Source of the DNA: a virus
Reading direction: 5' to 3' (one strand)
IMG/VR virus record: IMGVR_UViG_3300032268_000887
Location: 1-64,000 of that record
Length of the DNA stretch: 64,000 bases
This document shows, piece after piece, positions 1,688-64,000 of this stretch. Under the pieces are notes generated by a model. It was given only the letters and a program-made list of their open reading frames with translations, made no database searches and had not been told where the DNA came from. A program made the translations under genes and the position numbers. How positions within the stretch are numbered: position 1 is the first letter of the stretch; each line of letters opens with the position of its first letter.

Positions 1688-1716
1688 TTGACAAACCTTT
1701 CAACCTTATGTATAAT
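1688..1716 (+). promoter_or_regulatory. consensus sigma70/SigA promoter
   Basis: TTGACA-17 nt-TATAAT. Confidence 0.8.
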
Positions 1717-1722
1717 TAATAG

Positions 1723-1817
1723 TGCAATACCCCACAAGACGAACAAATAGAGCCTGACAACGTCTATAAAGGAAAAGATCAGGATAGGACCTGGATAAGT
1801 CTTAAAACTGTCCTTTT
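1723..1817 (+). ncRNA. candidate structured small RNA with two tandem H-type pseudoknots
   Basis: Follows the consensus promoter with no substantial ORF; AGACG/CGTCT + CCTGA/TCAGG; AGGAC/GTCTT + GGATA/TGTCC followed by TTTT. Confidence 0.45.
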
Positions 1818-1928
1818 ATAATAGGCAATATAGAAGACTCTAACTGTTATTGCACCGTTAGGGGCATAGATTAGTTTACTCTTTCTATTTTCCGCCGAAT
1901 TTTAAAATCAATATGATAGACTCGTAGT

Positions 1929-16152: not shown

Positions 16153-16302
16153 TCAGATATATGCTTGCATTAAAAATTTGCTATCCCAAAGGGCACCCAA
16201 AGACTCATTTCCAATATCGTCAAAGAAATATCTGTTGGCAGTAAGGCTATATGTCCAGCCTTTCCAAATATCCCCGTCATCCCAAGTTAGGTTTGTATCC
16301 AT
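16153..16302 (-). CDS. small hypothetical protein (49 aa, MDTNLTWDDGDIWKGW...)
   Basis: Translated by hand; TAATG coupling to the HNH gene. Confidence 0.5.
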   Translation of the reverse strand: MDTNLTWDDGDIWKGWTYSLTANRYFFDDIGNESLGALWDSKFLMQAYI

Positions 16303-16697
16303 TAATTCATCCTTATCTTATTTTTGGGAAACCCTAAATAATATTTAAAGTTCTTCCCTTCTTTTGTTCGCATTTCTGTTACATACCTATGACAGTTAGA
16401 ACAGATGATCTGACATTTCAACATCTCCCCCTGGATCTCTTCTATGGTTTTATCTCGTAGACCACTGCTGCTAAGGTTAAAGGATTTCTTGTATTGAGGA
16501 AGGTGGTCAAAATCAAGGGTATACCAAGGATATTCAACCTTACAACCTGGACAGGTACTATTTAAATCTTTAATATCTTTAAGGTATTGTCTCTTTGAAC
16601 TGCGCCTGCTTTTGATCCTTGCTCGTCTTATATCTTTATTGCGTTGATGCCAAAGCGCTTTATACTCAGCGTTTTTCTTTGGATCTGAATATGGCAT
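16302..16697 (-). CDS. HNH endonuclease
   Basis: CPGC...LDFDH...KCQIICSNCHR. Confidence 0.8.
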   Translation of the reverse strand: MPYSDPKKNAEYKALWHQRNKDIRRARIKSRRSSKRQYLKDIKDLNSTCPGCKVEYPWYTLDFDHLPQYKKSFNLSSSGLRDKTIEEIQGEMLKCQIICSNCHRYVTEMRTKEGKNFKYYLGFPKNKIRMN

Positions 16698-16877
16698 TTA
16701 GTCCTCACGGTTATTCATATCAACAACACCATTAGTATCAAAACAGTATTTGCATATTTCAAAGAACATACTCCCAGATGGATCTATGCTATAAATATAG
16801 TCACAGGCATGTGGGGTTTTTCGCATCTCATTAACTTTTTTCCAGGGATCCTTCATAAATTCATCTAAGTCGCTCAT
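16698..16877 (-). CDS. small hypothetical protein (59 aa, MSDLDEF...)
   Basis: Start reassigned by TGGTATGAT-6nt-ATG. Confidence 0.5.
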   Translation of the reverse strand: MSDLDEFMKDPWKKVNEMRKTPHACDYIYSIDPSGSMFFEICKYCFDTNGVVDMNNRED

Positions 16878-16909
16878 ACATTTATCATACCAGAAATCGG
16901 AGGAAATTA

Positions 16910-17005
16910 CAAGTGAGCACTTTATACACATGCTCAGGTGTGTCCAGTTATTTACTGTCGCTGTCTCCCCCGACATATCTGCGACTTCCCGATGAGAGGA
17001 TGCAG
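16910..17005 (-). ncRNA. candidate structured small RNA ending in an H-type pseudoknot
   Basis: TATAAT at 17012-17017; stems TCTGC/GCAGA, TGTCG/CGACA, CAGT/ACTG; pseudoknot ACAC/GTGT + GAGCA/TGCTC; GC-richer than flanks. Confidence 0.5.
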
Positions 17006-17022
17006 AGTTCTATTATATTGTA

Positions 17023-17454
17023 TTATTTTATTTTAATTGTTTTAGGCTTCTTTTCTTCTGGAACAATACGATCAATTTGTATTTTTAACATACCGTCCTT
17101 TAGATCAGCACTAGTAATTTCCATGTATTCTCCAAGCGCAAAAGATCTTGAGAATTGGCGAGTTGCAATTCCATTATGAACTACTTCTGGATATTTTTTT
17201 CTTCCATCAGTCTGATCCTTTAATTCACCCTTAATAAATAAAGTTCTATCATCTAGAGTGACCTCTATATCATCTTTAGAAAATCCAGCCACAGCAATAG
17301 AAACTAGATAAGAATCTTCATCTAGTTTGACTATGTTGTAAGGTGGATACGACTGTGAGTTTGTTCTATATGCACTGTTTAGGCGACTCAACTCTTTGTT
17401 GAAACCAATAAAAAATGGATCCTTAAAAAGATCCATAGCGAATGTACTTACCAT
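17023..17454 (-). CDS. Hsp20 / alpha-crystallin small heat-shock protein
   Basis: YPPYNI, AVAGF, HNGIATRQFSRSF, ADLKDGML, PEEKKPKTI. Confidence 0.95.
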   Translation of the reverse strand: MVSTFAMDLFKDPFFIGFNKELSRLNSAYRTNSQSYPPYNIVKLDEDSYLVSIAVAGFSKDDIEVTLDDRTLFIKGELKDQTDGRKKYPEVVHNGIATRQFSRSFALGEYMEITSADLKDGMLKIQIDRIVPEEKKPKTIKIK

Positions 17455-20774: not shown

Positions 20775-20782
20775 CAAACTAG

Positions 20783-20853
20783 AGCGACTAGCGAGAATCG
20801 AACTCGCACATCAACCTTGGCAAGGTTACGCACTACCACTATGCAATAGTCGC
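20783..20853 (-). tRNA. tRNA-Gly(GCC)
   Basis: GCGACTA...TAGTCGC acceptor stem, anticodon loop TTGCCAA, GTTCGATTC; no encoded CCA. Confidence 0.9.
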
Positions 20854-20857
20854 TAAG

Positions 20858-20931
20858 TACACCAGGTAGGACTTGAACCTACGATATCCGAATTATGAGT
20901 TCGGGGCCTTAACCAACTTGGCTACTGGTGC
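20858..20931 (-). tRNA. tRNA with CAT anticodon (Ile2-like or elongator Met)
   Basis: GCACCAG...CTGGTGT, CTCATAA loop, GTTCAAGTC; lacks initiator GGG/CCC. Confidence 0.85.
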
Positions 20932-20937
20932 TTATCG

Positions 20938-21010
20938 TGTCCCCAACGGGATTTGAACCCGTGTTAACGCCGTGAAAGGGCGACGTCCTAGGCCACTAGA
21001 CGATGGGGAC
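20938..21010 (-). tRNA. tRNA-Glu(TTC)
   Basis: GTCCCCA...TGGGGAC, CTTTCAC loop, GTTCAAATC. Confidence 0.9.
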
Positions 21011-21015
21011 CTGCG

Positions 21016-21088
21016 CTGGCTCACCAGGTTTCGATCCTGGGACATCCGAATTAACAGTTCGGCACTCTACCAACTGAGTTATGAGCCA
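21016..21088 (-). tRNA. tRNA-Asn(GTT)
   Basis: TGGCTCA...TGAGCCA-G, CTGTTAA loop; atypical T-loop GATCGAAAC. Confidence 0.85.
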
Positions 21089-21832: not shown

Positions 21833-22381
21833 TTATAGTTTAAAATCTGGGTCTTGAAATGCTTTTTGTGAGGTGTGCATATATAAAGCGGTATATCTGT
21901 GCCCAGTTTTTACTTCTGTGATTCCATGTATATACTCTGTGCCAGCACTTGGAAAAAATACGGCAGAAAATTTTTTAGGTTTATATGAAAATCCTTGATT
22001 TGGAAAATAAATCTCTCCGCCTTCATACTCTAAGGGATCATTAAGATACATTATAGTGCTCCACTCAATAAATGGCTCTGGTCCCTGGGCATCAATATGT
22101 AGGTCCCCTTTTGTTCCAGCAGTCCAATGGGAACCAAATGCTTTAAATACATAAATATCTTTTAAATATCCATTTAGCCCTTTATGCATTTCATTGCTTT
22201 TGTGGCCATATTTAGTTAACAAATTTATTACTTTTTGATTATAAGGAAACGCCGTTCCCCCATATCTTTTTTTATAATAATCTGGGTATGGATTTGTTTG
22301 AGATGGATTGTTCATTTCACCAATTAAAAGGTTGGCGTCTTCTTCAGAAATAAAATTATTGACTACGGTAATTCTGTGCAC
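21833..22381 (-). CDS. 2OG-Fe(II) oxygenase, P4H-like (subfamily A)
   Basis: LHID, YLND..YEGGEIYFP, HGI, RY. Confidence 0.85.
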   Translation of the reverse strand: MHRITVVNNFISEEDANLLIGEMNNPSQTNPYPDYYKKRYGGTAFPYNQKVINLLTKYGHKSNEMHKGLNGYLKDIYVFKAFGSHWTAGTKGDLHIDAQGPEPFIEWSTIMYLNDPLEYEGGEIYFPNQGFSYKPKKFSAVFFPSAGTEYIHGITEVKTGHRYTALYMHTSQKAFQDPDFKL

Positions 22382-61900: not shown

Positions 61901-64000
61901 ATTTCTTTTTGTAGCCTATCGGATAACATGGTATTAATTTTTGAAACATCTGTTGCTTGATTTGTTTCTAAATCTGATATTTGTTGTTTTATTTGAAGTT
62001 GTTTTTCAAGGCTTGCTGTTGTTTCTAATTGCTTGTTTAGTAAATCAATTTGTTTTTGATACATCATGTTGGTCGCATCTGCTTGAGCCTGTATGATTTC
62101 TAAGTTATTTGCACCAACTGCTGCAATTCTTGCTGCTTCATTTCTTCCGGTAGTCGATCCAGACTCTGCTTTTGATAACCTTGTTAATTCTTTATCTGTT
62201 CGCTTAATAGCCTGAGCAATAATTTGTGTTCTAATTCTTAATGGGTCTTTTGCTAAATCTTCTCCATTTGGACCTATAATTGATCTAATATTTCCTTTAA
62301 TTTCAATGCCATATTTTTGATTTCCAAGTTGAATGCCTATTTGTTCTGCTATTCCCTCTGCTTGTTCGGCAGTTAAAACACCATCAGATACATATGTTGA
62401 TAGTTGTAATGCAAAGTCTGATGCTGCTTGTTTTGATCCAAACTTTTCCATATTTTCAACAAAACCTTTAACCATGTTTTTGCCAAGATCGGATTGTAAG
62501 AATTTATCTCCAAACATTGAACCTGCTCTTTGAGCATCATTATATGCTCCAAAAGAGCCAGATCTTCTCCTTCTTTCCATTATTTGCGAAGCACCGACTG
62601 CTCCTGTTATTTTTCCAACTTCTTCCATTTTCTGTGCTGTTCCAGATGTTGCTTTTACGAACTCTGCTTGTTTCTTTGCGCTTTGTTCTAAATTTTTACT
62701 TAATAATAAAAATCCCCCAGCAAGTGCTGCTGCAGCGGCTGCTGCTGCGACATATGGGTTCATTAGCATTGGGAGCATTGATGTTACAGCAGATGCACCC
62801 ATTAATCCCATACCCAAATTATTATTGCCAGTCATAAATGCACCCATAGAGGCCATACCTAACGCACCCGCTGCTGGTCCCGCAACAGATCCAACTCTTT
62901 GTGCACGTTGTGCCCTTTGTTCACGTTTTAGATCTTTAGCACTTTGTGTTGTTGGCTGTGTTAGTTTATCTGTTGCCTCTGTGTTTGCATTTAATGATGT
63001 AATTAACTGTTGAAGTTGTGTGCCAGGAACATTTATATTTGGAGCAATACTGCTCATTGGGGCAACATTGCCCATTTTAAATCCTGATCCTGGCGTAGTA
63101 ACAGAAGGATTCACCCATCCACCATCTGCGCCTAAAGCAAAACTTCCAGGGCCTTTAAATCCAGGCCTAGGAATAACTCTCATAACCTTTGACGCATCCA
63201 AAAGACGAGTATCTCGCTTACTTCCACCTATTTGTGTTGTATCTTTTGTTTTAGAGTTTCCAGTTGATGGTGTTACTTGACTTGCTCTTCCTTTATTGTC
63301 TATAACGCCTTCTCCCGGAGCCACAGCAATTTTAGGCTTTGTGCCACCTCTCATTGCCTCAAGTAAGGCGTTGTCTTCTCTATCGTAACGGGCCTGCTGA
63401 ATTCTACGTATGTCATCTACTATAGTGCTTCCTGTTTTTCCTGCTACAGTAGATGCTGTAGGTTGGTACCCTTGTGCCAAAGATTTATCTGAAAAATAAA
63501 TTCTATTGGCTTTTGATCCACGGCCAAGACTTACTTCTTTTCCATCGTTAGTTTTAATAATAAGACTTTTTGTTGCTGTTGCTCCAGATTGTCTTTGTCT
63601 TGTTTCCACTCTAAAGTCTTTAATAATCCCAGCACGTTTTGCTTGTTCTAAAACTTTAGCGCTAGTCTCAGGAGTAGATCCTAATCCTCTTCCTAAAGAG
63701 TATCCCCCAATTCTGTCATACTGACTTAGCATTTTTTGATATGCTGGAGTAGATTTAATATTGTCAGGAACATTCTTAAAAGCATTTTCTATAACGGCAT
63801 CAGTAACTCTTGGAGATCTTCTTATTTGATCCATCATTGCTGAATCAATTGATTGGGCTTGTGCTGAAGTTAATCCTGAAGGTGCCCACTTATTTGGGCG
63901 ACTTGTCCATTCTCTTTCAAAATCGATTAAAGACACACCATTCTTTGTTGCCAAACCTTTATTTAGGTTAGGATCAAATGAAAGTGCTAAGGAGCCATAT
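58957..64000 (-). CDS. tape measure protein (5' end lies beyond the window)
   Basis: >1665 aa, Ala/Gly hydrophobic patch, long coiled coils, GG.V.G...DSVRAMLTPGEFVM motif. Confidence 0.85.
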   Translation of the reverse strand, partial: YGSLALSFDPNLNKGLATKNGVSLIDFEREWTSRPNKWAPSGLTSAQAQSIDSAMMDQIRRSPRVTDAVIENAFKNVPDNIKSTPAYQKMLSQYDRIGGYSLGRGLGSTPETSAKVLEQAKRAGIIKDFRVETRQRQSGATATKSLIIKTNDGKEVSLGRGSKANRIYFSDKSLAQGYQPTASTVAGKTGSTIVDDIRRIQQARYDREDNALLEAMRGGTKPKIAVAPGEGVIDNKGRASQVTPSTGNSKTKDTTQIGGSKRDTRLLDASKVMRVIPRPGFKGPGSFALGADGGWVNPSVTTPGSGFKMGNVAPMSSIAPNINVPGTQLQQLITSLNANTEATDKLTQPTTQSAKDLKREQRAQRAQRVGSVAGPAAGALGMASMGAFMTGNNNLGMGLMGASAVTSMLPMLMNPYVAAAAAAAALAGGFLLLSKNLEQSAKKQAEFVKATSGTAQKMEEVGKITGAVGASQIMERRRRSGSFGAYNDAQRAGSMFGDKFLQSDLGKNMVKGFVENMEKFGSKQAASDFALQLSTYVSDGVLTAEQAEGIAEQIGIQLGNQKYGIEIKGNIRSIIGPNGEDLAKDPLRIRTQIIAQAIKRTDKELTRLSKAESGSTTGRNEAARIAAVGANNLEIIQAQADATNMMYQKQIDLLNKQLETTASLEKQLQIKQQISDLETNQATDVSKINTMLSDRLQKEIEIFKTRIQTKDQFAIDLPFNDTNMREDAYFDSLKSTVKDAYKGTEYEGLASNALKRLSKLSDLTGGLSLLDGGKTKSGFGSAEKAQELEVQMSLLLKNKILNPEQSNALLDLFAGKLPELQQTLALGIRKQGSEKTVAMLDFFTGLDLDKEKAVKISTQIINSDPATFDKIGEALAALQVLDGHEVNMSAYIETVGYDGLVKLADKLSIVEKLPKKLSKKIIIQSLKDGALNGTGLDEKSLELLMSQWKDFDALPDSIQKEAISKFVTIRETRYADLASANAAAAQNIDDQLVGLTGIGRDIKESQLIAEGAGSIEKIEGVDKEGEKVYSYKISDKGAAKATKEYLPKEKTSSGNQPGGAGLGGGDRDTTLDDLLRKLKMTRDAGIDAEGGIGELNRIFKESGGDMTKFTGVIQQLNDMGANLDFVNFIEGLDNKTQAAYLNVAKLKEGFVELTPVGEKAMQLMQEAGLGGFAAEADTAITAIKMQTEGFIRLREAGVSVADSLEMMSDEQFMYDLQQAKSIELQDKLIAKYNERVAAEQKLLEDTDPEKAFDIQMNKAMKYYDFLEKQARAAAQPEIDRVNGLIDANEKLIDIKQRSIEMDYDRPIEKLNQDLAIINKAADDINKKYDKQEKALEKISSLNQEIAEQERGRLNLADALTSGDISAAARAAQEMRATDAANAIQISSNALQTAKESEISALTAGGFTRAQIEEKIYNLEQKRLPIIAEITALQDKNYNYQVNELQPLRDALDARIKNIDTARTAWENQQLAIQAAAFEADKTNDRFKIGEGIVAAIKKLWDDIKDKNITLSVNTVGTPISSAIKAGTQAPDANITASALGAGYKNNAAYQNFRAGERNMYGGFIKKYSSGGSVSGSGMTDSVRAMLTPGEFVMNRAASQKFGPLLERINESKYPDSLSLGGTPTVTAINNNSVNNNNTSVYNYSLSVGVNDTSASPDDIARTVITQIRQMDARRLRGNTY

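Follow-up and report, generated by a model that had tools for sequence, protein, structure and literature searches.

The window analyzed here comprises positions 1 to 64,000 of IMG/VR virus record IMGVR_UViG_3300032268_000887, a lake phage contig of 102,686 bp that is rated 94% complete. It contains two copies (A and B) of a 27-nt element that folds as an H-type pseudoknot, and both are members of a very widespread family of such pseudoknots in phages. Copy B is non-coding and is located on the sense strand between the stop codon of an hsp20 gene and the promoter of the next gene, and copy A follows a second, unrelated leader. Window position numbers are used for both loci, with copy A on the plus strand and copy B on the minus strand. 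The two copies, and the parts of copy B, are:

16915..16941, minus strand: pseudoknot copy B, ACAC-CT-GAGCA-T-GTGT-ATAAAG-TGCTC
16941-16938 with 16929-16926, minus strand: stem 1 of copy B
16937-16936, minus strand: loop 1 of copy B (CU)
16935-16931 with 16919-16915, minus strand: stem 2 of copy B
16930, minus strand: junction U of copy B
16925-16920, minus strand: loop 3 of copy B (AUAAAG)
1787..1813, plus strand: pseudoknot copy A, GGAC-CU-GGAUA-A-GUCU-UAAAAC-UGUCC

All nine pairs are formed in each copy (9/9), with a fixed spacing of 4-2-5-1-4-6-5, and stem 2 of copy B can be extended to 7 bp through U16936-A16914 and U16930-G16920. The two sequences, their equal spacing and the pairing of both stems had been described in a first-pass annotation of the window, and were found as quoted; the quoted sequence of copy A occurs once. 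A covariance model built from 148 copies recovers A and B alone in the whole genome, at 37.4 bits for copy A and 36.7 bits (E 2e-8) for copy B, with the next match at 9.9 bits; as both copies are included in the model, their scores are partly by construction. The genome search that the annotation had proposed gave the same answer, as its strict descriptor matches two sites in 102,686 bp (A and B) and none in 30 Markov shuffles, in what is a post hoc test. Two relaxed pattern matches, at 63174 and 95777, score below 10 bits with the covariance model and were treated as chance occurrences. Because the structure-only descriptor is frequent by chance in the same genome (57 observed vs 41 expected), the match within this genome is suggestive but post hoc.

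Independent of that match, the descriptor was applied to newly fetched DNA, consisting of 81 loci with the small gene that follows copy B. Among these, the homologous spacer of four loci (L001, L002, L003 and L054) carries the module with stem 1 altered at two pairs, and further perfect copies were found elsewhere in the fetched loci (L016 and L044). A chance origin of the module is excluded.

Covariation and extent of the pseudoknot family

The fold is an H-type pseudoknot with a stem 1 of 4 bp, a CU loop, a stem 2 of 5-6 bp, a one-base junction and an A-rich loop of 6 nt. We scanned the viral collection with two patterns, in which stem 2 and the loop letters were fixed and the three variable pairs of stem 1 were left free. 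Each scan returned at least 119 loci, and several of the matched contigs hold 3-4 copies. Pairing at every free stem-1 position was found for 98 of 127 and 46 of 68 of the unique sequences, respectively, and for only 3 of 127 and 4 of 68 when the partner is shifted by one column as a control. More than 200 copies were retrieved with stem 1 unconstrained and the pairing kept, stem 1 being paired in 94% of cells. Over the 147 distinct rows of the 148-copy alignment, the paired cells amount to 93.4%, compared to 27-37% with slid partners, and none of 500 shuffles reaches the observed pairing. Columns 4-17 of stem 1 contain GC 74, AU 27, UA 24 and CG 22 times and are never unpaired, and columns 5-16 contain AU 67, UA 65, CG 9 and GC 4 times, so that all four Watson-Crick pairs are represented at the two middle positions of this stem.

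Stem 2 was assessed in 52 copies retrieved with stem 1 required and the two seed types excluded. It is fully paired in 33 of these, by 15 pair types, and in none of the 52 in the shifted control. The G-U pairs that occur, for instance in GGAUA/UGUCC, agree with an RNA read from the given strand. Based on the covariation of stem 1 and stem 2 and these strand-consistent G-U pairs, both stems are selected for pairing. A covarying pseudoknot module in two otherwise unrelated non-coding regions, as originally proposed, is therefore borne out by compensatory pairing across the family.

The family consensus is NNNC-CU-GRRYA-W-GNNN-WWAAAC-URYYC, often followed on the 3' side by an A that is able to pair with the U of CU. 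Several of these letters were fixed by the retrieval patterns: CT with the C that precedes it, AAA, the G that follows the single W, and the A that ends the 5' strand of stem 2. The C after AAA was left free, and is a C in 96% of the copies. Copy A fits all consensus letters, and copy B deviates once, with a G for the C after AAA. The invariance of CT and AAA that had been noted between the two window copies is correct, but family-wide these are the letters that the retrieval patterns themselves fixed.

Hundreds of copies are present across unrelated phages, so the original scope of two small RNAs (sRNAs) in one phage was too narrow. The stem sequences vary between copies within one genome. 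Cultured carriers are Roseophage SIO1, in which the knot (22200-22229) begins 9 nt past the stop codon of the ribonucleotide reductase gene, the Lentibacter phages ICBM1-3 and the Celeribacter phage P12053L. Tandem knots, 7-8 nt apart and with a GGAUA-type followed by a GAGCA-type copy, were observed in six loci (L099, L110, L118, L120, L148 and L153), and two others (L293 and L316) contain 3-4 knots within a few kb.

The family has no catalogue entry that we could identify. At the gathering threshold, Rfam 15 returned only four tRNAs over the whole window, and a cmscan of both loci at E up to 10 gave chance miRNA and CRISPR matches outside the knot for locus B and none for locus A, which agrees with the earlier statement that the element could not be assigned to a named family. 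In the literature, no paper was found that pairs the motif sequence with "pseudoknot", and a search by topic found none on such a phage element. The main text of a catalogue of candidate viral RNAs (PMC10690425) contains nothing on the motif by key terms. BLAST of the flanks against cultured phages gave a short hsp20 match only.

Leaders and neighbouring genes of the two copies

The following features were identified at locus B:

17023..17454, minus strand: hsp20 gene (PF00011, phrog_432), with stop codon TAA at 17025-17023 and the B cassette 3' of the stop
17012..17017, minus strand: TATAAT box, putative -10, with a predicted transcript start near the base of hairpin 1 (about 17005)
16978..17006, minus strand: hairpin 1, outer stem TCTGC 17006-17002 / GCAGA 16982-16978, inner stem UCCU/GGGA
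16956..16975, minus strand: hairpin 2, TGTCG 16975-16971 / CGACA 16960-16956
16884..16912, minus strand: sigma-70-like promoter, TTGTAA 16912-16907, 17 nt, TG-TATGAT 16889-16884
16698..16877, minus strand: small conserved gene of 59 aa (MSDLDEFMKDPW..., MSDLDEF...), start codon ATG at 16877-16875

The composite of box, hairpin 1, a second hairpin and knot, in this order, is kept in six related loci, with hsp20 upstream in five of the six. The box is conserved as (A)TAGTATAAT at a constant distance of 6-7 nt before hairpin 1 (L291, L303, L304/L212, L305, L314 and L239), in support of the TATAAT box that had been recognized upstream of copy B. The box has no convincing -35, and its promoter activity is inferred. 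Of the three upstream hairpins originally listed, two stand. Hairpin 1 is conserved in the relatives (TCTGC...GCAGR), where its inner stem reads CCCC/GGGG, and hairpin 2 shows a compensatory change in L239 (AGTCG/CGACT), the other relatives having a different but pairing hairpin at this site with the sequence replaced wholesale. The third (CAGT/ACTG) overlaps hairpin 2 and is not conserved. A long-range helix in the minimum free energy fold of locus B (16973-16963 / 16906-16896) is absent from L239 and L291 and was attributed to chance.

Copy B does not encode protein. An open reading frame (ORF) of 92 aa that starts at ATG 16976 and crosses copy B, with CxxC motifs, is spurious. Among 22 homologous proteins found, the distant ones all begin at the methionine of 16877-16875, and the upstream extension (16878-16976) is not conserved as protein. 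The same kind of N-terminal extension, a translated pseudoknot and promoter, is present in metagenome proteins such as P0001-P0007. Directly 3' of the small gene lies an HNH-endonuclease-like gene (phrog_3106; 16302-16697, minus strand), which is consistent with a mosaic, mobile neighbourhood at locus B.

The -35 of the promoter of the small gene starts 2 nt past knot B, and its ATG lies 6 nt past the -10, which implies a leaderless mRNA. The 40 nt 3' of copy B are unusually unstructured (-0.4 kcal/mol). The arrangement from promoter to start codon is kept upstream of the homologous small gene in many contigs (L004-L007, L028, L030, L041, L065-L069 and L072), with TTGACW, a 17-nt spacer rich in CCCCCGAAWTT, and a TG-extended -10 (corresponding to window positions 16875-16912, minus strand). 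Conservation of this layout could point to a host with leaderless translation. The promoter class with the CCNCCGAWTT spacer is not multi-copy in this genome.

Locus A contains, 5' of the knot:

1688..1716, plus strand: consensus promoter TTGACA-17-TATAAT (12/12 matches), conserved with the leader in relatives
1723..1786, plus strand: leader 5' of the knot, almost unchanged in relatives

No ORF of at least 30 aa overlaps locus A. Within the leader, a looser second pseudoknot is possible (1737-1783, plus strand; AGACG/CGUCU crossing CCUGA/UCAGG), which is too invariant for covariation. Directly 3' of copy A is a UUUU sequence, with no hairpin within 11 nt, and the next gene of the window comes after 115 nt and another -10-like box. 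Part of this spacer (1846-1905, plus strand) is a shared intergenic block, comprising a hairpin (GCMC-N5-GGGC) and, after it, RGGTTTGTTA-like and CTCTATTTT sequences, which lies just 5' of a CCGCCGAA-type promoter spacer and is also found in L016, L044 and L045-L053. The block is thus located 3' of knot A here, and 5' of the small gene in relatives without knot B.

Knot A is identical in seven fetched loci of the pattern scan, representing three distinct contexts. The promoter, leader and knot of locus A are 73-100% identical in three other genomic contexts, and in three contexts the homology of the cassette is lost, down to the random level, precisely where the knot ends on its 3' side. In addition, the nearest relatives, at the protein level, of the small gene that follows B are without the knot, from which it follows that the spacer at B is mosaic. 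Such borders could indicate that the sequence is mainly a recombination junction for regulatory cassettes, as with the promoter-early stem-loop (PeSL) elements of T4, with the RNA fold secondary. We consider this very improbable: compensatory change in both stems reflects selection on pairing and not on a shared DNA sequence, and stems that differ within one genome would be ill suited to homologous exchange.

The unit of promoter, leader and knot recurs in related phages before different genes. In the relatives of locus A a Shine-Dalgarno (SD) sequence and start codon are located 21-29 nt 3' of the knot, and in those of locus B the SD and start of a staphylococcal-nuclease-like gene lie 21-23 nt 3' of it. 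As the cassettes of these relatives run into an SD and start codon 21-29 nt on, A and B look like portable 5' leaders. The two knots are the last element of structured leaders of about 90 nt, in portable cassettes of promoter, leader and knot. Only in this genome do both cassettes precede a separate promoter, uncoupled from an SD and start codon.

The annotation had interpreted the pseudoknot as a reusable 3'-end module capping two phage sRNAs. The reusable character is upheld by the family, but the relatives that continue into SD and start codon speak against the cap. That A and B are nevertheless discrete phage sRNAs of about 90-95 nt, with the knot as a 3' cap or non-canonical terminator, is an unlikely explanation in our view. 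It fits the separate promoters that follow both leaders in this genome and the UUUU after copy A. Across the family the 9 nt 3' of the knot are G-poor and U-rich, and at least five U residues are present in the 8 nt after the knot in 40 of 211 copies (19%), against 8 of 211 (4%) in the control; copies after stop codons and before promoters also suit a cap. Conversely, about 81% of the copies lack a U tract, including copy B, and a scan for intrinsic terminators found no terminator-like site at A or B. Efficient termination would also be at odds with the tandem and operon-internal copies.

Contigs from a lake metatranscriptome include relatives that are 90-95% identical, span hsp20 and the leader, and reach into variant knots. 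One of these reads UGAC-CU-GAGUA-A-GUCU-GUAAAC-UGCUC on the RNA strand at its loose end. The data consist of contigs without strand, level or RNA ends, and carry-over of DNA is possible. Each of the leaders of A and B would be transcribed from its own promoter box.

Genomic positions of the family and a possible roadblock function

Positions were analyzed for 213 unique perfect copies. In 75 of 181 copies the knot begins 5-14 nt past a stop codon on the same strand; it begins exactly 5 nt past the stop in 19 copies, and nearer in one. The genes upstream are varied, and encode DUF932 proteins, ribonucleotide reductase, portal protein, SSB, polymerase and another Hsp20. Anchoring to the stop codon does not depend on how far away the next gene is, and the next ORF lies more than 80 nt off in 46 of 67 stop-proximal copies. 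All but a handful of copies leave at least about 18-20 nt before the following start codon, with a cluster at 20-37 nt. In 6 of 210 copies, compared to 0.34 expected, a -35 begins 0-6 nt past the knot and is succeeded by 17 nt, a -10, about 6 nt and ATG.

Some copies are located 4-12 nt 5' of the first tRNA in a cluster, often tRNA-Asp(GUC). In eight loci (L292, L308, L316, L200, L204, L290, L223 and L180) a knot at this distance before a cluster-opening tRNA-Asp(GUC) comes after a DUF932 / phrog_1221 gene. Cleavage by RNase P at tRNA-Asp(GUC) would leave an upstream RNA with the knot as its 3' terminus. The window itself has four tightly packed tRNA genes (Asn, Glu, Met and Gly; 20782-21088, minus strand), and no knot lies 5' of this cluster in this genome.

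These positions bear on the possibility that the knot binds a protein or the ribosome and serves as a translational operator, an enhancer, an S1 site or a standby site, comparable to the leader of T4 gene 32. Many copies have a start codon 20-39 nt downstream and, 3' of the knot, a stretch rich in A/U and poor in G, and the loop and junction nucleotides are invariant, as in a recognition surface, although most of these letters were fixed by the retrieval patterns. However, most copies are anchored to an upstream stop codon with the next ORF often distant, and ribosome loading is not needed before tRNAs or before the promoters of leaderless genes. The very different phages that carry the knot also speak against a phage-specific protein partner, and overall such a binding site seems rather improbable.

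The offset from the stop codon, the distance to the start codon, and the sites close to tRNAs and promoters all fit a fold that is kept intact between expression units. On this basis, and by analogy with known viral elements, we give about an even chance to the reading that the knot is a roadblock to nucleases and ribosomes, which protects RNA ends at the boundaries of expression units. It would act by its fold rather than by the sequence of its stems, as a small triplex-type mechanical obstacle to processive enzymes, such as exoribonucleases, scanning RNase E or RNase J, and ribosomes. Located just outside the footprints of terminating and initiating ribosomes, and before RNase P sites and promoters, it could delimit and protect the ends of these units. 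Copy B would then close the RNA of hsp20 or of the TATAAT box, 2 nt short of the promoter that serves the leaderless gene behind it. The 3'-end or nuclease-block role suggested by the first-pass annotation is retained as one of the two best-fitting readings, given the copies after stop codons and before promoters and tRNAs. Anchoring to stop codons and the knot-then-promoter composites, locus B included, favour protection of the upstream RNA.

The analogy is with coremin, or xrRNA-C, of beny-, cucumo- and many other RNA viruses, which stalls Xrn1 and scanning ribosomes and promotes frameshifting, and which is found in intergenic and untranslated regions, sometimes repeated (PMC6546385, PMC10520033, PMC10321173). 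It consists of a hairpin of 3-5 bp with a loop that starts with C, a UUAAAC spacer of which the 3' part contacts the loop, and a second hairpin downstream (PMC6546385, PMC10520033, PMC10321173). This likeness, and the leader position in the relatives, favour protection of the downstream RNA.

Several observations weigh against a roadblock. With regard to the side that is protected, against 3' exonucleases or against decay dependent on the 5' end, the sequence evidence points both ways. Frameshifter pseudoknots of similar size do not stall Xrn1 according to the coremin papers, which means that a small H-type knot need not be a roadblock. The second hairpin (hp2), which coremin needs for resistance to Xrn1, is absent 3' of A, B and most phage copies, and a 5'-3' exonuclease may be missing from many hosts of the carrier phages. 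Copy B itself has a G at the position in loop 3 that is a C in 96% of the copies. Finally, nested-only folding of the single sequences gave no signal for the knots (z -1.3 and 0.0), so that their stability rests on analogy; for the two leaders it gave z -1.8 and -0.5. As nested-only folding cannot score a pseudoknot, these z-scores are uninformative.

The 27-nt fold is among the commonest structured RNA elements of phage genomes, cultured phages included. It can serve in annotation as a marker of gene ends and non-coding spacers, as illustrated by the false 92-aa ORF that it exposes here, and the knots at the edges of mosaic cassettes bear on how phage regulatory modules are shuffled. If the roadblock reading is true, it would extend exoribonuclease-resistant RNA (xrRNA)-like biology from eukaryotic RNA viruses to bacteriophages, account for the partition and stabilization of long phage transcripts, and provide a very small insulator or stabilizer part for synthetic biology.

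Comparison with known systems

The riboswitch preQ1-I (RF00522) is likewise a compact H-type knot with an A-rich 3' loop along stem 1, and several family copies precede tRNA-Asp(GUC), a queuosine tRNA. The knot might accordingly be taken for a small ligand-sensing aptamer of the preQ1-I type, but this is extremely improbable. The family has a one-base junction in place of a ligand loop of 4-6 nt, which leaves no room for a ligand, and the cmscan gave no match to RF00522 or another Rfam family for the knot at E up to 10 at either locus. In addition, the knot is present in several copies per genome, beside unrelated genes, tRNAs and promoters, and is not tied to queuosine genes.

The PeSL cassettes of T4-type phages are reportedly simple hairpins, without a conserved pseudoknot or loop, and limited to T4-like phages. 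They may have in common with the present loci a structured element right before a sigma-70-type promoter in an intergenic spacer, in cassettes that are mosaic between relatives. The phage family described here differs in having a conserved pseudoknot. In the gene 32 mRNA leader of T2 and T4, an H-type knot is specific to one autoregulated gene. It resembles the present motif in being part of a phage 5' leader and in the unstructured, A/U-rich stretch that follows before the start codon, but has another sequence, and the present motif is generic and multi-copy.

The dimensions are almost those of the -1 frameshifting knots of beet western yellows virus (BWYV, 28 nt) and other luteoviruses and enamoviruses, which have a stem 1 of 4-5 bp, a C-initial loop 1 of 2 nt and a one-base junction (PMC10321173). 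In both kinds the A-rich loop measures 6-7 nt and can engage in minor-groove triples, and a knot that begins 5-9 nt past a stop codon resembles the spacing between a slippery site and its knot. The phage family differs by a longer stem 2 and the lack of a slippery heptamer or overlapping frame. Copies A and B are in non-coding leaders, and no ORF enters either knot, contrary to what a -1 frameshift stimulator would require.

Coremin (xrRNA-C) is the closest known element. The phage knots share with it the short first hairpin, the loop that starts with C, and an H-type fold about as large as that of BWYV. In some phage copies the sequence GACG-UUAAAC-U matches coremin exactly. The coremin spacer of about 10 nt is GUUAAACUAC; the WWAAAC-U of the family overlaps its UUAAACU, with UAAAAC-U in copy A and AUAAAG-U in copy B. 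Differences are found in the hairpin loop, which is 8 nt in A and B (CUGRRYAW; CUGAGCAU in B and CUGGAUAA in A) and YGAD or YGNNAD in coremin. The 4-bp stem fits the coremin definition, but the second base of the loop is U and not G. Moreover, the 3' part of the spacer is replaced in the phages by a full Watson-Crick stem 2 of 5-6 bp, and the carriers are DNA phages of bacteria, with hosts that do not have Xrn1.

Among the contigs retrieved with the GGATA-type pattern are some of 2.5-3.3 kb with a gene for an S-domain coat protein (PF00729) of the type common in small RNA viruses. On one such contig (L196, 1131-1157, minus strand) the knot is located between the large ORF and the coat gene, with a 7-bp hairpin 1 nt downstream. 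A knot immediately followed by a stable hairpin, the coremin-type arrangement, was observed in L196, L101, L111, L127 and L132, and also in L113, L143, L160 and L198, which include contigs with the S-domain coat protein (PF00729) and some labelled as giant-virus metagenome-assembled genomes. A universal, portable roadblock of the coremin/xrRNA-C kind, common to DNA phages of many bacterial groups and eukaryote-type RNA viruses through homology or convergence, with which phages would define and protect message ends, and stabilizing in the present genome two free RNAs of about 90 nt (A and B) made from their own promoters, is a possible but doubtful extension of the analogy.

Given the lack of a second hairpin and a loop that falls outside the coremin rule, A and B are not members of coremin by its published definition, yet plausibly work alike. 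By comparison with these systems, the element is best described as a coremin- and BWYV-like H-type pseudoknot of DNA phages, with a Watson-Crick stem 2 and lacking the second hairpin of coremin.

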